Shown here: piece by piece, positions 624-32,000 of the stretch | Position numbering within the stretch: position 1 is the stretch's first letter | Layout of the letters: the number at the start of each line of letters is the position of its first letter | Origin: Candidatus Saccharimonadota bacterium | Lineage (GTDB): Bacteria > Patescibacteriota > Microgenomatia > UBA1406 > GWC2-37-13 | Length of the DNA: 32,000 nucleotides | Direction of reading: 5' to 3' | Assembly: GCA_016432445.1 (NCBI GenBank) | Contig: CP066689.1 | Coordinates: 600,001 to 632,000, forward strand | The notes under the pieces: model-generated | The model's input: only the letters and a program-made list of their open reading frames with translations | Told to the model about the DNA's origin: nothing | The model's database searches: none | Translations under genes and position numbers: made by a program

Positions 624-1532
624 TTAAGAAGTTTTCTTCATTTTTTGAAGCCGGTCGGCAAATAATTGTGCCCAACCAGCACCTTTATAAAAAGCAATTG
701 ATCCAACTCCAAAAAGTATGTCGAATCGATAGGGGAATAACGGATAAGTAAGTAAATACAATATTCTGCCTATGTGAGTGTCTAACCCTACATGAACGAC
801 CTTTTTTATATTTTTTCCTTCTGCAATATCATAAATTACTTGAGCCACTTTTTCTGGTTTTGTTCCAAAAGTATTTCTCCACCAGCTGGTTATTTTTTCA
901 GCGGCCTTTATCTCAGCGGGATTTTTTCCTTCAGTCCAACTCGCGCGGTCGATCCTAGTTATAGTGTTTCCAGGACGAATATCTACTAATCTAACGTTAT
1001 AATTCTTCATATATGATTTTTTTGTTCTTCTTGTAACTCTTGAAAGACGGATTTTAGAGTCGTTATAGCCGCCATGATGAAGATCTGGCCAGTAACGTTT
1101 AGCTGAGGTTACGTTAATTATAGTTCCTCCACCATTTTGATCCATAATTCCTGAAGCGGCTGCTGTAATAAGAATAGGCGCGTATAAATTTACTGCAAGC
1201 ATATCTTCCAAAGCTTTTGTAGGCGTGAGATCTTTACCATACATTGTAGATAATGCGCCTTTAGTCATGATTCCTGCGGCGTTAACTACAATATCAAGTC
1301 TTCCCGACTCTGCGCTTTCATTAACCATGCTGATAACTTGGCAATGATCAGTCACATCAATTTTTAAGGGTCTAATATTTGAATATTTAGGTTGAGAGAA
1401 AACTTCATGAATAGCTGGGTCTTTATCGGCTGCATAAACTGTATATCTTCTATCTTGAGCAAATTTTTCAGCAGTGGCTTTTCCAATCCCGCTGGCTGCG
1501 CCAGTAACGATTGCAACTTTTCTTTCAGACAT
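624..1532 (-). CDS. short-chain dehydrogenase/reductase (SDR) family oxidoreductase
   Basis: N-terminal VAIVTGAASGIGKA (TGxxxGxG Rossmann motif) and YNDSK (YxxxK catalytic motif). It carries a C-terminal extension of about 80 aa. Confidence 0.85.
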   Translation of the reverse strand: MSERKVAIVTGAASGIGKATAEKFAQDRRYTVYAADKDPAIHEVFSQPKYSNIRPLKIDVTDHCQVISMVNESAESGRLDIVVNAAGIMTKGALSTMYGKDLTPTKALEDMLAVNLYAPILITAAASGIMDQNGGGTIINVTSAKRYWPDLHHGGYNDSKIRLSRVTRRTKKSYMKNYNVRLVDIRPGNTITRIDRASWTEGKNPAEIKAAEKITSWWRNTFGTKPEKVAQVIYDIAEGKNIKKVVHVGLDTHIGRILYLLTYPLFPYRFDILFGVGSIAFYKGAGWAQLFADRLQKMKKTS

Positions 1533-1538
1533 TTCAAG

Positions 1539-1547
1539 ATTATATCA
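1539..1547 (-). promoter_or_regulatory. extended -10 promoter (TGaTATAAT) 6 nt upstream of the SDR ATG
   Basis: The minus strand reads TGATATAATC-TTGAA-ATG. There is no Shine-Dalgarno, and the geometry fits a leaderless transcript. Confidence 0.45.
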
Positions 1548-1563
1548 CAGATAGTTATAGGAT

Positions 1564-1641
1564 AAAAAAAAGACCTATGGGGTGGAAAAAATCAGCCAGC
1601 GGCTGATTGATGACAACATTGTCACCAGTCCATAGGTCTTT
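1564..1641 (-). terminator. multi-hairpin 3' element of cassette A ending in U8 (complex intrinsic terminator or 3'-UTR RNA)
   Basis: Outer stem agacctatgg (1571-1580) pairs with ccataggtct (1630-1639). It encloses hairpins at 1591-1607 and 1611-1624. On the minus strand the structure is followed by T8 (1564-1571). Confidence 0.55.
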
Positions 1642-1695
1642 CGATTTTGCACTCCATTGTGCGGATGACTAGATTAGTTTGGTTGCCATTACACC

Positions 1696-2109
1696 TCAGC
1701 TTGTGTGATTGACTCCGTTTTGCCGTATCACAGTGATAGCGGCTGCAGCTGCTAAAAGGATTGCTCCTGTAAGCAGAGACAGCATTATTAGGGTCTTAAA
1801 TGTGCTAGGTGACACGTAAGGTACGATTGTTACGACCAGCATGGGGAGTGCAATGAGCACGAGCGTTCCCAATCTGATCAACCTTGGGCTTCCGTCGGAT
1901 AATAGGATTGCGATTAAAAAAGTTCCAGCCACTATGATGGATGACACGATCAGGCTAAGGATTCTCCCAAGCGGTGAGCTTTCGTCTGAGAGGCCTGGAC
2001 CCTGGCTGATGTTTAGTGAGATAGCTCCTACAGTGACGACTATCAGGAGCAGACCAATAAGAGCGTTAAAAACCAAGGTTGTTTTGTCGATTGACGCTAA
2101 ACGTTTCAT
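1696..2109 (-). CDS. small integral membrane protein, 137 aa, about 4 TM (cassette A gene 3)
   Basis: The ORF is almost entirely hydrophobic segments. It runs co-directionally 4 nt after the 68-aa gene, and its G+C is higher than the flanks. Confidence 0.55.
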   Translation of the reverse strand: MKRLASIDKTTLVFNALIGLLLIVVTVGAISLNISQGPGLSDESSPLGRILSLIVSSIIVAGTFLIAILLSDGSPRLIRLGTLVLIALPMLVVTIVPYVSPSTFKTLIMLSLLTGAILLAAAAAITVIRQNGVNHTS

Positions 2110-2113
2110 TGCA

Positions 2114-2320
2114 CTAGCCTCCTTTTTCAGTTGTTTGTCTTTTCGGCAGTCCGAACGTCATGATTCCTGGCCCGGATATTCCAATGATAGCTCCGAAGCC
2201 AAAAACCAAAGCCGCAGTAGAGTGATCCGTAACATTCCAGGCTACCATAACGACTGATGTCACAACAATTGCCAAACCCAGAATTGCTACGATCCCCCCA
2301 GCATAGAACCACTTTGACAT
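2114..2320 (-). CDS. small membrane protein, 68 aa, 2 TM (cassette A gene 2; paralogue of 4055..4276)
   Basis: GGAGG Shine-Dalgarno upstream. An ungapped alignment to the 73-aa ORF shows MSKW.Y, GAI.G..GP and GLP.RQTT. Confidence 0.65.
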   Translation of the reverse strand: MSKWFYAGGIVAILGLAIVVTSVVMVAWNVTDHSTAALVFGFGAIIGISGPGIMTFGLPKRQTTEKGG

Positions 2321-2392
2321 GATCTTTCCTCCTTCTTATTTTAATCAATCTCCAAGTGACCGCCGAGCAATTTTCAGTTGTGAGTTTTTATG

Positions 2393-2647
2393 TTAGATCT
2401 CGATCCTCCTTACTGGAATGTGAATGCTTGATGCTAGGAAGGTTACGCCGATTGAACCGATTAGGATACCTCCATAAAACAAGATGTCTGACAAGAGTTT
2501 GAACGAGATAACCAGAACATAGTTACCTCCCAATGATATGAACAGAGGATAGTCATTAGATAGTATAGGCAAGAAGAAAATAGATACAATTACTAGCGCC
2601 GTCCCAACTGCGGTTAGAGATGCCCCAATTTTTTGAGCGATAGACAT
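2393..2647 (-). CDS. small membrane protein, 84 aa, about 3 TM (cassette A gene 1; paralogue of 4294..4566)
   Basis: Hydrophobic ORF with an AGGA Shine-Dalgarno. It shares FFL..DY...YVL...Y.G.L..IG with the 90-aa ORF. Confidence 0.6.
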   Translation of the reverse strand: MSIAQKIGASLTAVGTALVIVSIFFLPILSNDYPLFISLGGNYVLVISFKLLSDILFYGGILIGSIGVTFLASSIHIPVRRIEI

Positions 2648-2673
2648 TATTTAATTTTCCTTTCTTCTTTTTT

Positions 2674-2814
2674 ATCCGCACAATTTGTCAAGGTTCGAAG
2701 AAATCTGCAAAAGAAACTTCATCAGGCAGCTATTGTCTAAATCCATTTATCTCACAGCCTTCTTCAAAATGAATTATAGCAAATTCATTTCGAGCCTTTT
2801 ATAGCAACACTTTC
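2674..2814 (-). repeat. 141-bp perfect direct repeat, copy 1 (promoter plus 5' leader of cassette A)
   Basis: Identical base for base to 4594..4734 at an offset of exactly 1920 nt. Identity breaks at 2673/4593 and at 2815/4735. Confidence 0.95.
2773..2807 (-). promoter_or_regulatory. tandem TTGCTATAA motifs; proximal one is an extended -10 (TGcTATAAT)
   Basis: The minus strand reads gTTGCTATAAAaggctcgaaatgaatTTGCTATAATtc. The predicted transcript start leaves a leader of about 120 nt. Confidence 0.5.
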
Positions 2815-2895
2815 ATCAAAGAATATTAAATATCCCTAGCGTTGACATAAATATAATATTATTATATCTTTAACTATTAATTCCAAATAATCTCT

Positions 2896-3066
2896 ATGTA
2901 TAAGGTTACAGCTTATAGATTTGCAATCAAACTTTGGGGAAGATTTGGACCGGAAAGAGCCAAAGAATTAGAAGGATATCTAAACTCAAGTTCACCTGAC
3001 GGCTATGAATTAGTTATCGTATTACCTTTTGGATTTTGGTTTATGTGTATCTGGAAAAAGAAATAG
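2896..3066 (+). CDS. 56-aa protein, possibly DUF4177-like
   Basis: An ORF below the track cutoff translates to MYKVTAYRFAIKLWGRFGPERAKELEGYLNSSSPDGYELVIVLPFGFWFMCIWKKK. The pattern resembles the ...EL...L...G.EGWELVSV signature, recalled from memory. Confidence 0.3.
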   Translation: MYKVTAYRFAIKLWGRFGPERAKELEGYLNSSSPDGYELVIVLPFGFWFMCIWKKK

Positions 3067-3184
3067 AAATAGCTTTGAAAACATAATATTCTCATTACGC
3101 TCGATTTCACTTCGGAGGTAAGTAAATTCAAATATTTTAGAAACTTTTGCTATGGCCTATAGCATTGCTTTTTATTTCTTCTTT

Positions 3185-3193
3185 TGCTAGAAT
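3185..3193 (+). promoter_or_regulatory. extended -10 (TGcTAGAAT) 7 nt upstream of the ATG at 3201
   Basis: Sequence TGCTAGAAT-tcagcat-ATG with no Shine-Dalgarno. This supports 3201 as the real start. Confidence 0.4.
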
Positions 3194-3200
3194 TCAGCAT

Positions 3201-3803
3201 ATGGTAATGAATGAGCAGTTTAAAAGACATATTCGTGCAAATGAGGGTGAACCAGGACTAAACGAATTAATAGAACTTCATGATCGTTTTAATCAACTTG
3301 TAACAGAGGGAAAAATAAAAGAATTACCACTTGATGAACAAGTTTCTCTTAGGGAAAAACCACGTGGACATAGAGGAAATAGAAAAAAGATTGATATTGT
3401 GTTAAAAAACGGAGAAACAGTATCGATTCCAAGAGAATTGTTGTCTGAAGAGACTGCAATATTGGAATATGCAGAAAGACGGCATAATGAAGATCCTGAA
3501 CATCCTTATTTTTATGCTAAGGATTTATTTAATGATGCGGTAATTAAAGCTGAAGTAAAGAATACTGGGTTTGTTTACAAGATGATGGGTAAGCTTATAA
3601 AATGGCATTGCTTAATTTCTAGGTTTGATCCTGTGGACTGCGAAAAAAAAGGGCCTGCGATTCGTGCAACTGCTTTTGCTATAACAGACAGCGGGTTAGA
3701 GATAGTCTCATTATTCCGTACACAAACAGGTGAAGCAAAAGTAAAGGGTGCGCAATTTAAATTCTTAAAAGCAATAAACGCTTCAGGTTATTCAAGAAAA
3801 TAA
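3201..3803 (+). CDS. hypothetical protein, 200 aa, with a possible C-terminal winged-helix-like region
   Basis: Long ORF. The internal ATG at 3201 is preferred over the TTG at 3147 because of the adjacent -10 box. The segment FVYKMMGKLIKWHCLISRF...AITDSGLEIV looks like a wHTH recognition helix plus wing; this is a weak by-eye call. Confidence 0.55.
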   Translation: MVMNEQFKRHIRANEGEPGLNELIELHDRFNQLVTEGKIKELPLDEQVSLREKPRGHRGNRKKIDIVLKNGETVSIPRELLSEETAILEYAERRHNEDPEHPYFYAKDLFNDAVIKAEVKNTGFVYKMMGKLIKWHCLISRFDPVDCEKKGPAIRATAFAITDSGLEIVSLFRTQTGEAKVKGAQFKFLKAINASGYSRK

Positions 3804-3843
3804 TTCTTCTAAAATAATGATTGAATAAAAAGCTTGGGGGGGT

Positions 3844-3933
3844 AAAAAAAAGACCTATGGTTTTCCGTTGAGTAAATGCACTTTATTGTGCACCGGCGAC
3901 TATATAGTCGTCTAAACGGTTGACCATAGGCCT
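3844..3933 (-). terminator. multi-hairpin 3' element of cassette B ending in U8
   Basis: Outer stem agacctatgg (3851-3860) pairs with ccataggcct (3924-3933) and is perfect on the minus strand only, via one G-U. Inner stem ccgtt/aacgg, with hairpins at 3877-3892 and 3895-3912. T8 follows on the minus strand (3844-3851). Confidence 0.55.
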
Positions 3934-3961
3934 TTAAACCTATCCACACCTGCGCGGATAT

Positions 3962-4051
3962 TTAGTTTGCCGTGACAGACCGCACGGCCGCAAAAACGAC
4001 TCCCACGACTACGACGAAGCCAATAAAAAGGCGAAGAAGAATCTCGTCCAT
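3962..4051 (-). CDS. 29-aa single-TM micro-ORF, possibly a deletion remnant of the 137-aa gene
   Basis: Translates to MDEILLRLFIGFVVVVGVVFAAVRSVTAN. It occupies the gene-3 position of cassette B, and its C-terminus resembles ...AAAAITVIRQNGVN of the 137-aa protein. Confidence 0.3.
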   Translation of the reverse strand: MDEILLRLFIGFVVVVGVVFAAVRSVTAN

Positions 4052-4054
4052 TTG

Positions 4055-4276
4055 TTATGCTCTTTCTTCAGTGGATTGAGTGGTTTGTCTTGGCGGCAGT
4101 CCGTGAACTATCAGCGCTGGGCCAATAAGACCCAGTATGGCTCCTGCAGCGAGGAACCAAAAAGAGAGCAGGTGCTCAGCTGGGTTTGAGAGCAGTATAA
4201 CAATGGACACAGCTATGCATACCAAACTGAGAGCAATGGTGGCTCCCGCTAAGTAGTCCCATTTAGACATGATCAT
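4055..4276 (-). CDS. small membrane protein, 73 aa, 2 TM (cassette B gene 2)
   Basis: GGAGG Shine-Dalgarno. Paralogue of 2114..2320. Confidence 0.65.
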   Translation of the reverse strand: MIMSKWDYLAGATIALSLVCIAVSIVILLSNPAEHLLSFWFLAAGAILGLIGPALIVHGLPPRQTTQSTEERA

Positions 4277-4293
4277 GATCTAATCCTCCTTTC

Positions 4294-4566
4294 TTAAGAG
4301 TATTCAGACTTGCGTTTATTCAGTTGTGAGTTGTCTTTCCTCTTTCCTTTCTCCACGATGAATAAACCGATCACCGTGAGCAAGACTCCTGCATAGAGCA
4401 GGGTATTCAAAAAGTGTCCATAAGGCAGAATTAAAACATAGGGTTCCACTGTGAACAATATTGAATTGTAGTCACGTACTGTAAATAGAAAAAAGGCAGA
4501 TAACAACAGTAGTATCGATCCGCTTGATACCATAGCAATACCAATGACCAGAGTCTTCGTCACCAT
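4294..4566 (-). CDS. small membrane protein, 90 aa, about 3 TM (cassette B gene 1)
   Basis: Hydrophobic ORF and paralogue of 2393..2647. The C-terminal basic tail corresponds to non-coding spacer in cassette A (shared ctcacaactgaa). Confidence 0.6.
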   Translation of the reverse strand: MVTKTLVIGIAMVSSGSILLLLSAFFLFTVRDYNSILFTVEPYVLILPYGHFLNTLLYAGVLLTVIGLFIVEKGKRKDNSQLNKRKSEYS

Positions 4567-4593
4567 CTCGATTCATCCCTTCGTTTATTTTTG

Positions 4594-4734
4594 ATCCGCA
4601 CAATTTGTCAAGGTTCGAAGAAATCTGCAAAAGAAACTTCATCAGGCAGCTATTGTCTAAATCCATTTATCTCACAGCCTTCTTCAAAATGAATTATAGC
4701 AAATTCATTTCGAGCCTTTTATAGCAACACTTTC
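4594..4734 (-). repeat. 141-bp perfect direct repeat, copy 2 (promoter plus 5' leader of cassette B)
   Basis: Identical to 2674..2814. It ends 5 nt before the ATG of the divergent gene at 4740. Confidence 0.95.
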
Positions 4735-4739
4735 GTAAA

Positions 4740-5735
4740 ATGAATATAACTTTTCTTGAACTTGAAGAGTGGGAAAAGCCAATGCTTAGAAATAATTTTT
4801 CAGGGCATAGTCTTAATTTTTATGAAGAAGCTTTAACTCAAAATAATCTTCAGTTGATCATAAAAACTGAGATATTATCACCCTTTATTTATTCCACGCT
4901 CTCAAAAGATATTCTTTCACAGCTTCCTAACCTCAAACTTATTGCTACCCGCTCAACAGGCTTTGATCATATTGATGTGAATTATTGTAAAGAAAGGGGA
5001 ATAACAGTCTGTAATGTTCCAACCTACGGAGTAAATACAGTGGCTGAGCACACTTTTTCTTTAATTTTGGCTCTGTCCAAGAAAATAGTTCCCTCAGTAG
5101 AGAATACAAGACAGGGTAATTTTGATCTTGATGGTTTGCGCGGAATTGAACTGGCCAACAAAACATTAGGGATAATTGGGCTTGGGCATATTGGTTTAAG
5201 AGTGGCTGAAATTGGGCGCTGTTTTAAGATGAAAATTATAGCCTACACGCCTCATCCTAATATTGATAAAGCGCAGGGAGTAACTTTTTGTGATCTGACA
5301 AGTCTTCTTTCCACCTCAGATTTTATAACATTGCATGTTCCCGCTACACCTGATTCAAATCACCTCATAAACAAGGAAAATATTAAACTATTAAAAAAAG
5401 GAAGTTTTCTTATTAATACTGCAAGGGGAGTCGTGGTTGAAACCGAAGCTATTCTTTGGGCTCTTGAACAAGGGATTCTTGGCGGAGTCGGATTGGATGT
5501 TCTTGAGGAAGAATGTGTTTTGAAAGAAGAACGGGAACTCTTGTCCAAGGATTTTTTAAAAACATGTAACCTAAAGACACAGCTATTAAACCATGTCCTT
5601 TTAACCAAAAAAAATGTGATTGTTACTCCACATAACGCCTTCAACAGCTATGAAGCATTACAGGAGATATTAGATACAACAGTCATCAACATAGAAAATT
5701 TTCTGGATGGGCAAGCAAAAAATCAAATATTATGA
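4740..5735 (+). CDS. D-isomer-specific 2-hydroxyacid dehydrogenase family protein
   Basis: GIIGLGHIGLRVAE NAD-binding motif. Also RSTGFDHID, LINTARG, GLDV..EE and TPHNAF, which holds the catalytic His region. Confidence 0.9.
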   Translation: MNITFLELEEWEKPMLRNNFSGHSLNFYEEALTQNNLQLIIKTEILSPFIYSTLSKDILSQLPNLKLIATRSTGFDHIDVNYCKERGITVCNVPTYGVNTVAEHTFSLILALSKKIVPSVENTRQGNFDLDGLRGIELANKTLGIIGLGHIGLRVAEIGRCFKMKIIAYTPHPNIDKAQGVTFCDLTSLLSTSDFITLHVPATPDSNHLINKENIKLLKKGSFLINTARGVVVETEAILWALEQGILGGVGLDVLEEECVLKEERELLSKDFLKTCNLKTQLLNHVLLTKKNVIVTPHNAFNSYEALQEILDTTVINIENFLDGQAKNQIL

Positions 5736-6310
5736 AAAACGGATTGAAAATACTGCTTCTGGCTGATTCTTGGCAGGTAACCGCACTTGGGATGATTGCC
5801 CCTATCTACGCCATTTTCGTAGAGAGAATTGGAGGAGATTTGTTAGATGCATCCTGGGCTTACTTTGCTTTTATGATGTCAACCGGAGTTACGATTTTTC
5901 TAATAAGTCATTGGGAAGATAAGATAAAACATAAAGAAAAACTGATTATGCTTGGTTATGTTTTAACGGTTGCTGGAGCAATGATGTACATCTTTGTCTT
6001 TAATCAGTTTACTTTAATTATTACTCAGATTGTCCTTGGTCTGGCTCAGGCAATTAAAGATCCTGCTTATGACGCTTTGTACTCCGATTATCTGGATACA
6101 GGAAAAAAAGCCTCAGAATGGGGTGACTGGGAGTCTATGTATTATGTGGCGACAGCTTTAGCGGCAATTCTCGGAGGATATATTGCTACAGTTCTTGGTT
6201 TTAGGGCGCTATTTGTTGGAATGGCTATATTTTCAATATTTAGTGCCCTTGTCTGCATAAATCTTTTTAGAAAGAAAGAGTATTTGCATTCAAAAGAATT
6301 GCTAAGATGA
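5732..6310 (+). CDS. six-TM membrane protein resembling half of an MFS transporter
   Basis: About six hydrophobic helices in 192 aa. The start overlaps the upstream stop (ATGA). Confidence 0.5.
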   Translation: MKNGLKILLLADSWQVTALGMIAPIYAIFVERIGGDLLDASWAYFAFMMSTGVTIFLISHWEDKIKHKEKLIMLGYVLTVAGAMMYIFVFNQFTLIITQIVLGLAQAIKDPAYDALYSDYLDTGKKASEWGDWESMYYVATALAAILGGYIATVLGFRALFVGMAIFSIFSALVCINLFRKKEYLHSKELLR

Positions 6311-6393
6311 GAAATATTATTTTGGCTTCTAAATCGCCGCGTAGAAAACAAATACTTGAAAAAAACGAAGGGGATTATTTTAATCGATTTTAA
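6307..6393 (+). pseudogene. maf: Maf-like nucleotide pyrophosphatase, N-terminal 28-codon remnant
   Basis: Translates to MRNIILASKSPRRKQILEKNEGDYFNRF*. IILAS.SPRR..IL is the typical Maf N-terminus. The rest of the gene is absent and the locus is overlapped by the converging 92-aa ORF. Confidence 0.5.
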
Positions 6394-6658
6394 TAAACTT
6401 AAATCGGTGGCTTTCCTCTCCCTTAAATATCTTATCTTCATAAACAAGAGCTAAGCATTCTGAATCAAACTTTCTAAAAAAATCAGTCCACGTGATTTTT
6501 TCAAGTCTATCATTTCTGCCGTTGTTTAAGAAATCAAAAGATAGTCGGTCTTCTTCATTAATTATTTCTTCATCTTTTATGACAGTCGGTATGCCATTGC
6601 GATCCTGCACCCAATTTTTTATCTCTTTGTGATTTCGTGTAATTCTTTTGAAATTCAT
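6380..6658 (-). CDS. conserved uncharacterised small protein (92 aa)
   Basis: The pattern T.NH.EI.NW...R.G.P....LSFDF......LE.ITW.DFF.KFD...LALVY matches a widespread small-protein family that I recall as uncharacterised. Confidence 0.55.
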   Translation of the reverse strand: MNFKRITRNHKEIKNWVQDRNGIPTVIKDEEIINEEDRLSFDFLNNGRNDRLEKITWTDFFRKFDSECLALVYEDKIFKGEESHRFKFIKID

Positions 6659-6753
6659 ATTTTTTAAAAAAACTGATAATGTTAAAAATCTTAATAATAA
6701 AGATTAAGAAGTCTCCAAGAAATCAGTAAGAAGGATGTAAGAGTTTACAAAAA

Positions 6754-7437
6754 TTATTTTATAACGAGAGTTATTTCTCCTCTAAAAGATTTATTTATCA
6801 ACTCTGAAGGTTTACCGCGGACAACTTCCTCGAATTTTTTAGTGATTTCACGGGCAACTGCCACATCTGCAGTAGGGTTAACTTCATTTAATATCTCTAA
6901 CGTTTTATTGACTCTATGGGGCGAGTCGTAAGCGGTAAAGATTGTTTCAGGAATGATTTTTTTTATTTCAAGCATTTTACGGATGAGTTTAATTATTTCA
7001 TTATTTTTTTTAGGAATAAACCCGACAAAAAACATATTTCCAGGGTTAAACCCAGATAAAACAACGGCAGTTGTAGAGGCAGTAGGGCCAGGAATAACTG
7101 TAAAAGGAATCTTTTCTTTGATGACATGATTGACTAAAAGAAAGCCGGGATCGGATATAAGAGGCAAACCTGACTGAGAGATAAGCGCGACTTCTTTATT
7201 TTCCTTTAATAAATCTAAAACTTCCGGTAGTTTTTCAAATTCTTTTTCTTTATAATAAGAAATTAATCTTTGAGAAGATTTAGTTGCAAGACCGAAAAGG
7301 TCTTTTATTTTTAAAATTAAAAGTCCGGTAGAACGGGTGTCTTCGGCTAAAATATAATCAACAGAAGTTAAAGTTTTTGCCTGTCGCAAAGACAAGTCTT
7401 CTAAATTACCAATTGGAGTGGCGACTATATATAGCAT
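6754..7437 (-). CDS. rsmI: 16S rRNA (cytidine1402-2'-O)-methyltransferase
   Basis: MLYIVATPIGNLEDLSLRQ...ILAEDTR N-terminus, typical of RsmI and the tetrapyrrole-methylase fold. Confidence 0.88.
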   Translation of the reverse strand: MLYIVATPIGNLEDLSLRQAKTLTSVDYILAEDTRSTGLLILKIKDLFGLATKSSQRLISYYKEKEFEKLPEVLDLLKENKEVALISQSGLPLISDPGFLLVNHVIKEKIPFTVIPGPTASTTAVVLSGFNPGNMFFVGFIPKKNNEIIKLIRKMLEIKKIIPETIFTAYDSPHRVNKTLEILNEVNPTADVAVAREITKKFEEVVRGKPSELINKSFRGEITLVIK

Positions 7438-8076
7438 ATGGAACAGATAATAGCTTTCTTAACAAACCTTATTATACAGGTTATTGAAAAAAGCGGTTAC
7501 GCAGGCATTTTTATACTGATGGCGGCAGAATCCGCTCTTATTCCAATTCCTTCTGAGGTAACTATGACTTTTGCCGGTTACCTTGCGTCAATCGGGAAAT
7601 TCAATATTTATATGGTGATTTTTATGGGTGCGTTTGCAAATTTGGTAGGTTCGATCGTTGCTTACTGGCTGGGTTATTGGGGAGAAGACGCTTTTATCAG
7701 AGACGTTATTAAAAAATACGGTAAATGGGTTTTTATTACAGTTGATGAGTATGAGAAATCTGAGAGATGGTTTCGTAAATATGGGGAAAAGATAGTTTTC
7801 ATTACGCGCGTTTTACCGATAATAAGAACCTTTATCTCACTGCCTGCAGGAGTAGCCAAAATGAATTTTTGGCGTTTTTCGGTCTATACTTTTGTTGGTT
7901 CATTAATTTGGAGCGCACTTTTGACGTATATAGGTTTTGTACTTGGAAAAAACTGGCACTCTTTAGAACAATATTACCGGAAGTTTGAGTATGCAATTGT
8001 TGCCGGAATAGTAATTTTGGTTATCTACTACATCCACCATAAATGGAAAAAAATCACAAAAAAATTGCACCCTTAA
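7438..8076 (+). CDS. dedA: DedA family membrane protein
   Basis: The motifs ...AESALIPIPSEV... and ...RVLPIIRTFISLPAGV... are characteristic of DedA/SNARE-associated proteins. Confidence 0.85.
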   Translation: MEQIIAFLTNLIIQVIEKSGYAGIFILMAAESALIPIPSEVTMTFAGYLASIGKFNIYMVIFMGAFANLVGSIVAYWLGYWGEDAFIRDVIKKYGKWVFITVDEYEKSERWFRKYGEKIVFITRVLPIIRTFISLPAGVAKMNFWRFSVYTFVGSLIWSALLTYIGFVLGKNWHSLEQYYRKFEYAIVAGIVILVIYYIHHKWKKITKKLHP

Positions 8077-8285
8077 CCTGTTAATTCAGAATTACCCCTT
8101 TGAGCGGGGCGGAGACCAAAGTCTCCAAGGGCGCGTGGCACAGTGAAACCGGAAGCCTTGTTGTTCGATTGCTAGCCATCACGCCATATGCGGTAAGCTG
8201 ACCAACCTATAAAGCACAAAAAGCTTCCTGCGAATACCCACCAGTCGGGGTGAAAGTATGCAGATAGCACTCCCGCCACTCTAAA

Positions 8286-8477
8286 CTATGGTCTTGGGTG
8301 GCGATGATGGTCTTCAAACCGCCTGAAGTCGCTGGTTGGTTTTCTGGTGAGCGCAGCCGTAGCAATCAGCACTAAGCCGATAATTACGAGGGCGCCTGCC
8401 TCCAGGCTAATTTGACGCTGAGATGCTATGAGTGCTAATCCTGCGAAAAACAAAATGACGCCTGTAATCTGTAGCAT
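8286..8477 (-). CDS. small membrane protein, 63 aa, 2 TM (cassette C gene 2)
   Basis: Two hydrophobic helices plus a basic/His-rich tail. AGGAG Shine-Dalgarno. Same length and architecture as 8506..8697. Confidence 0.55.
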   Translation of the reverse strand: MLQITGVILFFAGLALIASQRQISLEAGALVIIGLVLIATAALTRKPTSDFRRFEDHHRHPRP

Positions 8478-8505
8478 GTCTTTCTCCTCCTTTAACCAAG
8501 ACTTT

Positions 8506-8697
8506 TCATCTCGAGTTCTGGCGTGCGTGGTCGGACTTACGGTAATCGGCCACTGGTCCTGCTATAAGATAGTGGACCACAATCATGGCTACGCCTACTA
8601 ATGCTACTACAATTGCTCCGCGTCGACCTGGCATAAATAAAAATACCAGGTTTGCAACCCCAACGATCAGAATGACTACTCCTACTGTTTTGAGCAT
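8506..8697 (-). CDS. small membrane protein, 63 aa, 2 TM (cassette C gene 1)
   Basis: Two hydrophobic helices and a polar tail. AAGGAG Shine-Dalgarno. It lies downstream of a diverged copy of the cassette A/B leader. Confidence 0.55.
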   Translation of the reverse strand: MLKTVGVVILIVGVANLVFLFMPGRRGAIVVALVGVAMIVVHYLIAGPVADYRKSDHARQNSR

Positions 8698-8792
8698 CTG
8701 ACTTACTCCTTCTAAATATTTTTTTTGAGCATAAGCTCTTTAAACTCACAAATATTTATGAGCTAAAAAAGCTTATGCTCTTTACTTTCCAC

Positions 8793-8884
8793 CAATTTGT
8801 CAAAGTTCAAAAAATATAATAAGCCAAAAAAGGCAAGCTATTAGCATTTTTTACTTATTTTATCAGCCTATATTATACCAAATT
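8793..8884 (-). promoter_or_regulatory. diverged third copy of the cassette promoter/leader (extended -10 TGgTATAAT at 8880..8872)
   Basis: Blocks shared with 2674-2790: caatttgtcaaRgttcRaaRaaat, ggcaRgctatt, tttatc..agcct and attataSca aatt. Confidence 0.5.
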
Positions 8885-8940
8885 GCTATGGGTTAGTGTT
8901 TTTTTTCCAAAAAAAGGTCATAGATAAGATGTACAAATCA

Positions 8941-8971
8941 GCCTCAATCCACCCCGTACGTGGATTGAGGC
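8941..8971 (+). promoter_or_regulatory. 11-bp-stem palindrome in the uvrB upstream region
   Basis: gcctcaatcca-N9-tggattgaggc, ending 18 nt before the ATG at 8990 and immediately before the AAGGAAG Shine-Dalgarno. Confidence 0.4.
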
Positions 8972-8989
8972 TAAAAAGGAAGTGAACTA

Positions 8990-11176
8990 ATGGTATACGA
9001 CTATAAAAAGTGGTACAATTATTGGTTTATGCAATTTACTCTTACTTCAAAATTTAGTCCTACCGGAGATCAACCTCAGGCGATAGAGAAATTATCTGAA
9101 GGAATCAAAACTGGCCTTAAAAACCAGGTTCTTTTGGGTGTGACTGGTTCTGGTAAGACTTTCACCATGGCTAATATGATCGAAAAACTTCAAATGCCCG
9201 CGCTCATAATTTCGCACAATAAAACTTTAGCTGGTCAGCTTTATCAGGAAATGAGAGATTTCTTTCCGGAAAATGCCGTCTCTTATTTTGTTTCTTATTA
9301 TGACTACTACCAGCCTGAAGCTTATATGCCCCAAACTGACACTTACATAGAAAAAGAAGCTCAAATTAATGAACTTATTGATAAACTACGTTTACAATCA
9401 GCCACAAATATTTTGACCCGCAAAGACGCTATTGTTGTCGCTTCAGTGTCCTGCATTTACAATATTGGGTCTCCAGTTGATTATGGAAAATATATTTTAA
9501 ATCTGGCTATAGGTGATAAAGCCAATTGGAACAGCATTGCTTACCGGTTGGTAGAACTTATGTATTGCCGGGCTGAGTTTGAGTTTGGCCGCGGAACTTT
9601 CAGGATAAGAGGGGAGAGCATGGATATTTACCCAGCTTATGAAGATTATGGTTATAGAGTAAAATCCAAAAATGGAATCATCAGCGAGTTTGTAAAATTC
9701 GAACCATTAACTGGTAATGTCATTGCGAGCGAAGCCAGGTACAGGCCTGTACCTGACGAAGCGAAGCAATCTCACAATGGGATTGCTTCGTCACCTTCGG
9801 TTCCTCGCAATGACGGTCTGAAATCTATAATCGTCTACCCCGCCAAGCAGTATCTTACTGATAAACTTAAGTTCGACTCCTCCGAGCAGCAAATAAGAAC
9901 CGATCTTAAAAAAGAATACGATGATTTGAAAAACCAAGGTAAAGATCTAGAGGCTCACAGACTTCTAAAAAAAGTGAATTATGACTTAGAAATGATAAAA
10001 GAGGTTGGTTACGTAAATGGAATAGAAAACTATTCGCGTTATCTTGATGATAGACGGCCAGGCGATCCTCCCTACAGTTTAGTTGATTACTTTACCCAAG
10101 CTTACGGAAAAAATTTTTTAGTTTTCATTGATGAGTCGCATATGACAGTGCCCCAGTTAAGAGGTATGTACAATGGTGATTTTTCTAGAAAAAAAACATT
10201 AATTGATTTTGGTTTTAGAATGAAAGCGGCTTATGATAATAGACCTTTAAAATTTGAAGAATTTTATCGCCTTCCTCCGCACATAATTTATGTGTCAGCA
10301 ACTCCTGATGAGTGGGAAATAAATCAATCGAAGACGGAAGTAAAAACGAAAGTAGGGAACGCAGATCTGCGTTCCGTACAACATGATGGGGTTGTTGAAC
10401 AGTTGATAAGACCGACCGGCATTATTGATCCTCAAATAACTGTCAGGCCATCATCAACAGAGATTCCTGATTTGGTTGAGGAAATAGCGAAAAGAGTTAA
10501 ATTAAACCAAAAAATACTGGTAACTACTCTAACAAAAAAAACGGCGGAAGATTTAACAGAATATTTAAAAGATAAGCAAGTAAGAGCCTCATATCTTCAT
10601 TCGGATATTCAAACTCTTGAGCGGTCTGACGTTTTGGATAATTTGAGAAAAAATGAGTTTGATGTTTTAATTGGTGTTAATTTGTTAAGAGAAGGATTAG
10701 ATTTACCTGAAGTCTTTTTGGTGGCTATACTTGACGCCGATAAAGAAGGTTTCTTAAGATCGAAAACTTCACTTGTTCAGACTATGGGAAGAGCGGCCAG
10801 AAACGTATCAGGAGAAGTTATAATTTATGCTGATACAATGACTAAGTCAATTAAAGCCGCAATAGAGGAAATTGAGCGCCGAAGAGCTTATCAATCTCAA
10901 TACAACAAAAAACACAATATTACACCAACTACAGTTCTTAAGCCAATAAGAGAAAAAATCATCGAAAAGCCAGAAGATTATTTAGCATACGATGCACCAA
11001 AATCAGATATCGGCAAGGAATATTTAGATAATCTAAAAACAGATTCACTCACACCATACGATAGAAAGAAAGTTGTTAAACGTTTGGAGAAGGAAATGAA
11101 AAAACAAGCCGAAGATCTTAATTTCGAGATGGCTATTAGGATAAGGGATAAGGTAAGGGAGTTAAAAACCATTTGA
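8990..11176 (+). CDS. uvrB: excinuclease ABC subunit B
   Basis: GDQPQAI, GVTGSGKTF, YVSYYDYYQPEAY, DESH, the helicase motifs and a C-terminal UVR domain. An alternative start at 9029 (MQFTLTSKF...) aligns better to E. coli UvrB, but 8990 has a Shine-Dalgarno. Confidence 0.97.
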   Translation: MVYDYKKWYNYWFMQFTLTSKFSPTGDQPQAIEKLSEGIKTGLKNQVLLGVTGSGKTFTMANMIEKLQMPALIISHNKTLAGQLYQEMRDFFPENAVSYFVSYYDYYQPEAYMPQTDTYIEKEAQINELIDKLRLQSATNILTRKDAIVVASVSCIYNIGSPVDYGKYILNLAIGDKANWNSIAYRLVELMYCRAEFEFGRGTFRIRGESMDIYPAYEDYGYRVKSKNGIISEFVKFEPLTGNVIASEARYRPVPDEAKQSHNGIASSPSVPRNDGLKSIIVYPAKQYLTDKLKFDSSEQQIRTDLKKEYDDLKNQGKDLEAHRLLKKVNYDLEMIKEVGYVNGIENYSRYLDDRRPGDPPYSLVDYFTQAYGKNFLVFIDESHMTVPQLRGMYNGDFSRKKTLIDFGFRMKAAYDNRPLKFEEFYRLPPHIIYVSATPDEWEINQSKTEVKTKVGNADLRSVQHDGVVEQLIRPTGIIDPQITVRPSSTEIPDLVEEIAKRVKLNQKILVTTLTKKTAEDLTEYLKDKQVRASYLHSDIQTLERSDVLDNLRKNEFDVLIGVNLLREGLDLPEVFLVAILDADKEGFLRSKTSLVQTMGRAARNVSGEVIIYADTMTKSIKAAIEEIERRRAYQSQYNKKHNITPTTVLKPIREKIIEKPEDYLAYDAPKSDIGKEYLDNLKTDSLTPYDRKKVVKRLEKEMKKQAEDLNFEMAIRIRDKVRELKTI
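9721..9816 (+). repeat. 96-nt in-frame palindromic repeat element inside uvrB
   Basis: Flanked by cattgcgag...ctcgcaatg. Internal palindromes caggtac-aggcct-gtacctg and gaagcaatc-N9-gattgcttc. It adds 32 codons (IASEARYRPVPDEAKQSHNGIASSPSVPRNDG) that are absent from E. coli UvrB at this point. Confidence 0.8.

Positions 11177-31065: not shown

Positions 31066-32000
<935 letters not shown>

Follow-up and report, generated by a model that had tools for sequence, protein, structure and literature searches.

A 163-bp perfect direct repeat in front of two diverged membrane-protein operons of a Candidatus Roizmanbacteria chromosome, and its 141-nt form in the deposited assembly

Why should two stretches of DNA be identical to the last base when the genes that they precede have diverged almost beyond recognition? 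The question is raised by a window of 32,000 nt (the whole stretch of DNA analysed here), in which positions 2674–2814 and 4594–4734, as deposited, match at 141 of 141 positions with an offset of 1920. A sequence-only reading had drawn attention to this pair, and its count of identical positions is accurate for the window.

The window is part of a chromosome that was assembled from agricultural groundwater and belongs to a Candidatus Roizmanbacteria. One of its open reading frames, orf218, is HYW86_03185 in the NCBI annotation (Candidatus Roizmanbacteria MAG), and run SRR12113421 is from BioProject PRJNA640378, the study of Modesto agricultural groundwater by He et al. 2021. The comparison set consisted of Logan k = 31 contigs from runs SRR12113383–432, which were found via proteins of the window in public assemblies; these are independent k = 31 assemblies from at least 13 sequencing runs of one groundwater project. 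BLAST alignments of Logan contigs with the window gave 100.000% identity over 11,001, 2,703, 1,809 and 1,155 nt. Over more than 15 kb, not one mismatch was seen, and disagreement is confined to the DNA immediately right of each repeat copy.

Extent and edges of the repeat

In the deposited window, the bases flanking both copies differ (2673/4593 and 2815/4735), the match does not extend on either side, and the pair is the sole long exact repeat of such kind within the 32 kb. The true repeat is a perfect direct repeat of 163 bp, not 141. In the Logan contigs, both copies run on for 22 further common nucleotides beyond position 141. For instance, L092, a contig found in identical form in 13 samples, contains ACACTTTC, AACTCCAGAGGTTGATATTTTA, TCTACCTTTGTTTAAA and ATCAAAG in succession, and contigs L001–L008 contain ACACTTTC, AACTCCAGAGGTTGATATTTTA, AAGACGATAGAAGATAATAAA and GTAAAATG. 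Contig L006 covers the entire second copy and then 22 more common nucleotides.

The positions at which contigs break are equally informative. At the left edge (2674/4594), L009–L012, L084 and L092 all break off exactly 30 nt (k-1) into the repeat, with L009–L012 starting at 2703 and both L084 and L092 ending at 4623; L001 and L092 both start with the final 30 nt of the 163-mer. Breaks recur in 7–13 samples at two places, 30 nt (k-1) in from the left edge and 30 nt short of the end of the 163 nt. Since these are the k-1 offsets expected in a k = 31 graph, the 163-nt repeat is regarded as genuine. Of the sharp edges previously ascribed to the repeat, the left one is upheld by these contig ends, and the right one very probably falls away, as 38 and 43 nt are missing at the two joins. 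Copy 2 had also been said to end 5 nt from the ATG of a dehydrogenase gene. That distance is 26 nt in the Logan contigs, and the 5-nt spacer occurs in none of the eight dehydrogenase contigs compared, out of 11. The suspicion of an assembly artefact, raised in the same reading, is therefore correct in part: the duplication is real, and the repeat has very probably been clipped at both scaffold joins.

The default largest k of MEGAHIT is 141. The assembly in question was made with MEGAHIT v1.2.9 at default parameters and then scaffolded with IDBA-UD (He et al. 2021, Methods). Because the deposited repeat length equals this largest k, because these two programs were used, and because the independent assembly differs at the joins only, the length of 141, both right edges and the 5-nt distance to the ATG very probably arose as artefacts of scaffold joining. 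A contig that runs into a 163-nt repeat would, in a k = 141 graph, stop on the first shared 141-mer, and 2674–2814 and 4594–4734 would be precisely that 141-mer. The following contig would start at repeat position 23, for a true overlap of 119 nt. The scaffolder would then merge the contigs by a paired-end distance estimate, and trimming of 157 and 162 nt instead of 119 would delete 38 and 43 nt. Alternatively, a minor strain may genuinely carry both deletions.

If the joins are indeed at fault, the deposited Roizmanbacteria genome has two small deletions that strip the dehydrogenase gene and orf56 of their predicted promoters and produce a misleading 141-nt repeat with sharp edges, and the assembly artefact generated the very properties that drew attention to the repeat. 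When an exact repeat in a MEGAHIT plus IDBA-UD scaffold is just as long as the assembler's k, this is a warning sign, and it may concern other genomes of the project.

Table 1. Features of the repeat and its surroundings, in window coordinates.
Feature	Position	Strand	Description	Basis
Compound intrinsic terminator of operon A	1560..1641	-	Outer stem AAAGACCTATGG/CCATAGGTCTTT, then T-run	D11, I7
Perfect inverted repeat (11 nt) of the repeat's left end	1656..1666		ATTGTGCGGAT vs ATCCGCACAAT at 2674–2684	
Operon A	1696..2647	-	Three small membrane-protein genes (84, 68, 137 aa); GC3 0.44–0.49	
Repeat copy 1	2674..2814	-	Initial 141 of 163 nt; putative operon A promoter and ~93 nt of 5′ leader	
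Leader block	2681..2696	-	GAACCTTGACAAATTG	Repeat family D2 and alignments
Palindrome	2767..2790 (copy 2: 4687–4710)		AAATGAATT-N6-AATTCATTT, centred on the -10 box	Inverted repeat I2
Putative extended -10 box	2773..2781 (copy 2: 4693–4701)	-	TGCTATAAT	Sequence reading; consensus match
Distal motif	2799..2807	-	TTGCTATAA; possible second -10-like box or second binding site	
Scaffold join	2814..2815		38 nt absent (AACTCCAGAGGTTGATATTTTATCTACCTTTGTTTAAA)	L092 sequence, BLAST, promoter scan
Operon B	3962..4566	-	Small membrane-protein genes (90, 73, 29 aa); GC3 0.46–0.57	
Repeat copy 2	4594..4734	-	Initial 141 of 163 nt; putative operon B promoter and leader	
Scaffold join	4734..4735		43 nt absent (AACTCCAGAGGTTGATATTTTAAAGACGATAGAAGATAATAAA)	L001, L004, L005, L006, BLAST, promoter scan
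Locus C leader (probable diverged copy)	8784..8876	-	Upstream of two 63-aa membrane-protein genes (8286–8697)	

Promoters, leader and neighbouring operons

Both minus-strand signals that had been read in the repeat are present (Table 1), namely the TTGCTATAA motifs in tandem and, as an extended -10 box, TGCTATAAT; transcription is predicted to start near 2766. A palindrome with 9-bp arms lies over the -10 box, a layout commonly seen in operators, and looks like a candidate operator; it is not kept in the third leader of the window (locus C, described below). An active promoter, its start point and the operator are all putative, being consensus readings. The portion of the leader that lies inside the repeat measures ~93 nt and reaches the left edge. 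Each repeat copy is then separated from its operon by 26–27 nt of diverged sequence that includes the Shine-Dalgarno, and the earlier description of these spacers as unrelated up to the start codons holds for the window. The block best conserved between the repeat and the locus C leader (there at 8793–8808) is GAACCTTGACAAATTG, which contains a possible anti-Shine-Dalgarno, CCUU.

Two further leader signals were considered and rejected. An upstream open reading frame would encode 24 aa in A, 64 aa in B and, in another frame, 15 aa in C, and its frame is not conserved. Likewise, TTGACA in the leader was discarded as a second -35 box, as no copy has a -10 box at 16–18 nt from it.

The 22 nt restored from the Logan contigs bring with them a plus-strand TTGATA. 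Toward orf56 and orf218, the restored 38 nt yield TTGATA-17-TAAAAT on the plus strand, and toward the dehydrogenase gene, the restored 43 nt yield TTGATA-17-GATAAT, which ends 8 nt before the ATG; each site has 10 of 12 consensus matches. Because of these promoter-like sites, the repeat is read as a two-way promoter region, the far end of which would contribute TTGATA as the -35 box to plus-strand promoters that diverge from it, one for orf56/orf218 and one for the dehydrogenase. It follows from the losses of 38 and 43 nt that the deposited sequence is without either predicted divergent promoter. In the corrected sequence (L006 153–189; window 4735–4742), the dehydrogenase gene has no Shine-Dalgarno and its ATG lies 8–9 nt past the GATAAT -10 box, and for both of these reasons its mRNA is probably leaderless.

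The two genes between the copies, orf56 and orf218 (2896–3803), have no family match. A single-sequence AlphaFold model of orf218 has a pLDDT of 39.

Operons A and B both encode small proteins with two or more transmembrane helices, and in operon A, each of the three genes is preceded by a strong Shine-Dalgarno. The proteins encoded downstream of the two copies are as diverged as had been claimed, with 27% identity between those of 84 and 90 aa and 37% between those of 68 and 73 aa; at the DNA level, the identity of the genes is about 50%. Islands of conserved DNA nonetheless stand out, namely AACTCACAACTGAA (14 nt), the beginning of gene 2 and a stretch coding for GLPxRQTT, and the outer stems of the terminators (GGRTAAAAAAAAGACCTATGG) are common to A and B (in B at 3840–3935). 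Taken together, the amino acid identities of 27% and 37%, the conserved islands and the shared terminator stems identify the operons as paralogous.

Some details of these operons deserve separate mention. The minus-strand AACTCACAACTGAA is identical in the spacers between genes 1 and 2 (2373–2386 in A and 4319–4332 in B), with ~50% identity around it. Within the terminators (1560–1641 and 3840–3935), conservation covers a 12-bp outer stem, AAAGRCCTATGG/CCATAGGTCTTT, as well as the T-run, and the interiors of 49–66 nt are unrelated. Candidate unannotated open reading frames for tiny transmembrane proteins lie on the minus strand at the end of operon B (3962–4051, 29 aa) and at the end of locus C (~8170–8277); the possible one at locus C would encode ~35 aa from a GTG start.

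All eight small genes of A, B and C have a GC3 of 0.42–0.57, as opposed to 0.22–0.36 in 22 others, including enolase. The GC content of the repeat is host-like at 0.355. The cassettes could thus be either compositionally foreign or under unusual codon selection. Relatives of the encoded proteins were sought widely. Among 5.8 billion clustered and 1.84 billion representative proteins, the 73-aa protein of B, a profile of the 68- and 73-aa proteins, orf218 and the 137-aa protein of A retrieved self-matches only, nothing scored above threshold in Pfam, PHROGs, PADLOC and NCBIfam, and BLAST against phages and plasmids returned no matches. Likely effects of a shared promoter/operator would be that operons A and B are regulated together, and the two point to a family of membrane proteins that is lineage-specific, regulated jointly and without known relatives.

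Locus C has a leader of its own, with TGGTATAAT where the repeat has its extended -10 box and with three blocks in common with the repeat (AGGCTG, AATAGCT and GAACYTTGACAAATTG). Under lenient scoring, it ranked best of 1546 windows, albeit narrowly (22 vs 21), with a shuffle p < 0.0005. Given this narrow margin, the locus C leader is a probable, not proven, third and diverged copy, and about 40% of its aligned positions differ from the repeat, with a homology that is statistically modest. The copies within the 32 kb accordingly number two plus one diverged. The two 63-aa genes behind this leader are paralogues of one another, and their proteins have no detectable relationship with those of A and B. 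A near-perfect 54-nt hairpin (8727–8780; z = -6.4) lies in the locus C leader between the conserved block and the Shine-Dalgarno. It is not the terminator of this operon, since its U-run is on the opposite strand.

Palindromic elements also occur elsewhere in the window. The interior of uvrB has two GC-rich, perfect 20-nt palindromes, in frame (9718–9800 and 10356–10375), the first of them within a larger palindromic stretch of the GCGAAGC type that is translated as QSHNGIASSPSVPRNDG; both look like insertions of small palindromic elements. In addition, the palindromic 20-mer CAGGTACCGTCTGGTACCTG is found twice (at 31224 and 31779) in the 5′ part of the 23S rRNA gene (31070–32000). Insertions in this gene are suggested by the rRNA match, which takes up 931 nt for model positions 1–793.

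Explanations for the identity of the copies

The identity could in principle be a product of the assembly. That the whole duplication is a chimera or collapse of a single genomic copy is exceedingly unlikely; although the deposited repeat matches the assembler's largest k in length and errors at both joins are demonstrable, independent k = 31 assemblies from many samples attach two left and two right flanks to one 163-nt sequence, and their contigs end at the exact k-1 offsets of the true repeat. It is also quite unlikely that the tandem layout is a misresolved loop of the assembly graph, in which case the chromosome would run from operon A through the repeat to the dehydrogenase gene, and there is little reason to believe that orf56, orf218, operon B and one repeat are a separate circle of ~1.96 kb or come from another strain. 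The de Bruijn graph does have two entries and two exits at the repeat, the contigs fit either path, and L006 passes from the repeat into the dehydrogenase gene without branching. Against such a loop, the authors' paired-end scaffolding joins operon A to the middle segment and the middle segment to the dehydrogenase gene, the codon usage of the middle is host-like, no replication or mobilisation gene can be recognised in it, and it was found together with its flanks in 13 samples. One biological candidate, akin to the riboregulator suggested in the sequence-only reading, is a new cis-regulatory RNA in the leader (for example, a riboswitch, an attenuator or the binding site of a regulatory protein that recognises RNA), with the copies kept identical by strong purifying selection. 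Such an RNA would fit a leader that is long relative to such small genes, that has the blocks AGGCUG, AAUAGCU and GAACYUUGACAAAUUG in common with the locus C leader, itself placed before unrelated small membrane proteins, and in which, judging from folds, the CCUU/CUUU of a conserved block could pair with each Shine-Dalgarno. The idea is nevertheless unlikely. Rfam has nothing for the repeat, either at gathering thresholds over the whole window or at E <= 5 over 1500–9000. The folding and covariation checks that had been proposed for the leader also went against a riboregulator: its minimum-free-energy fold is no better than that of shuffled sequences (z = -1.2 to -1.6), and RNAalifold returned -6.3 kcal/mol with a covariation term of +1.68, a penalty, from two distinct sequences only, with most pairs broken in locus C. 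The leaders of A and B have neither a terminator-like site nor a sequestering hairpin, their pairing amounting at most to the 4 bp of CCUU:AAGG. Nothing, then, supports a structured RNA in the leader in this comparison of two distinct sequences. Moreover, the identity extends over the untranscribed promoter and, in the true sequence, over another 22 nt upstream of it, and constraint does not explain why 163 nt are free of differences when ~40% of positions differ in locus C.

Other candidates involve mobility of the operons or of the repeat. The left end of the repeat recurs in inverted form behind operon A, where the 3′ UTR at 1656–1666 perfectly complements the final 11 nt of the repeat (ATTGTGCGGAT; p of about 0.003). 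Operon B has a weaker counterpart (3950–3959; p of about 0.15) with 10 pairs, one of them G-U, and C has none. This complementarity of 5′ leader and 3′ UTR could reflect mRNA pairing, a relic of recombination, or chance. It is very unlikely that the left end (ATCCGCACAAT) and its inverted 3′ UTR copy are recombinase sites, and just as little credence is given to foreign cassettes being inverted or swapped behind a fixed promoter-leader in the manner of a shufflon, an integron or an invertible switch. In favour of both ideas are an 11-nt inverted repeat that is perfect and sits exactly at the identity boundary of operon A, with its weaker form in B, the GC3 of the cassettes (0.42–0.57 vs 0.22–0.36 elsewhere) next to a repeat of host-like GC (0.355), and the similar leader in front of unrelated genes at locus C. 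They are opposed by the domain searches, in which no ORF tested at the loci or close by had a domain of a recombinase, integrase or transposase, by the lack of significance of the inverted repeat in B and its absence from C, and by the single A-to-G change in B, which keeps RNA pairing (G-U) and breaks the DNA repeat. Furthermore, the Logan contigs recovered, which represent ~25 loci from at least 13 samples, agree in orientation and have identical cassettes (100%). Every one of them is collinear with the window, a statement that applies to contigs and leaves room for minor variants. A MITE or other mobile promoter was rejected: the ends, ATCCGCAC on one side and CACTTTC (or GATATTTTA) on the other, are not inverted repeats, and the flanks have no target-site duplication. 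It is, finally, rather improbable that the conserved, AT-rich promoter-leader is a lineage-specific landing pad or regulatory module behind which compositionally foreign operons of small membrane proteins were placed at least three times. Such a module would act as a new leader RNA, for example by masking the Shine-Dalgarno via GAACCUUGACAAAUUG, or by recombination at the boundary motif ATCCGCRCA. When the leader pattern was searched elsewhere, viral contigs gave 61 matches, none with the second block; GTDB representatives gave three chance matches (Saprospiraceae, Flavobacterium and Legionella); and JGI metagenomes gave four, none with extended similarity. No relatives of the leader emerged from these scans.

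What remains is the contrast between zero differences in 141 (163) nt and the ~50% nucleotide and 27–37% amino acid identity of the adjoining genes. Selection on every base is not credible, because the genes have diverged to saturation and the leader of locus C is ~40% different. Going by this one locus, which offers thin data and a statistically modest homology, the function of the leader would tolerate ~40% divergence. The repeat is therefore read, with moderate confidence, as a shared two-way promoter/leader of 163 bp that was copied recently by recombination and was clipped in the course of assembly. Of the two causes originally proposed, gene conversion or strong constraint, recombinational homogenisation gives the best fit, and constraint by a riboregulator is unsupported.

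Gene conversion requires flanking homology. The event would have been a gene conversion between tandem paralogues or, equally, an integration or a duplication by way of the repeat; either of the latter two would leave a perfect direct repeat around a middle segment of 1.8 kb. Since both edges of the 163 nt are abrupt, a single event of copying or integration fits better than repeated conversion. The feature is real but ordinary, and on present evidence it involves no new mechanism. Its value is that it illustrates neatly how recombination can homogenise regulatory DNA in a reduced genome of the candidate phyla radiation (CPR).

Relation to known systems

The locus resembles several known systems in part. 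Like riboswitches and other 5′ leader RNAs, it combines a long leader and conserved blocks with small membrane-protein genes downstream, but its leader matches no family, shows neither a stable nor a covarying structure and, in A and B, lacks an expression platform. With the mRNAs of hok/sok-type (type I) toxin–antitoxin systems, it shares small hydrophobic proteins and, in operon A, the 11-nt complementarity of leader and 3′ UTR. In contrast to those systems, its operons are multi-gene, its proteins are 63–137 aa long, no antisense RNA is evident, and the 5′–3′ complementarity, weak in B, is missing from C. Morons, the promoter–gene–terminator units of phages, are similar in having their own promoter, small genes, a strong intrinsic terminator and an atypical GC3. 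The units described here, however, lie among core chromosomal genes (uvrABC, ruvAB and enolase) rather than in a prophage, and they have no similarity to phages or plasmids.

The deposited form of the repeat has its own parallel in the artefacts that de Bruijn assemblers and scaffolders produce at repeats longer than k. The deposited length equals the largest k, sequence is missing at the joins, and the remainder is identical to independent assemblies. The difference is that the underlying repeat is genuine, and only its length and its right junctions are wrong.

The last comparison is with the concerted evolution of regulatory regions in paralogous operons. The present case differs in its abrupt edges without a gradient of identity, and no conversion event or polymorphism was observed. 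It is alike in that a perfect block lies between paralogues that have diverged to saturation, and in that direct repeats ~2 kb apart on one chromosome result in a shared promoter.
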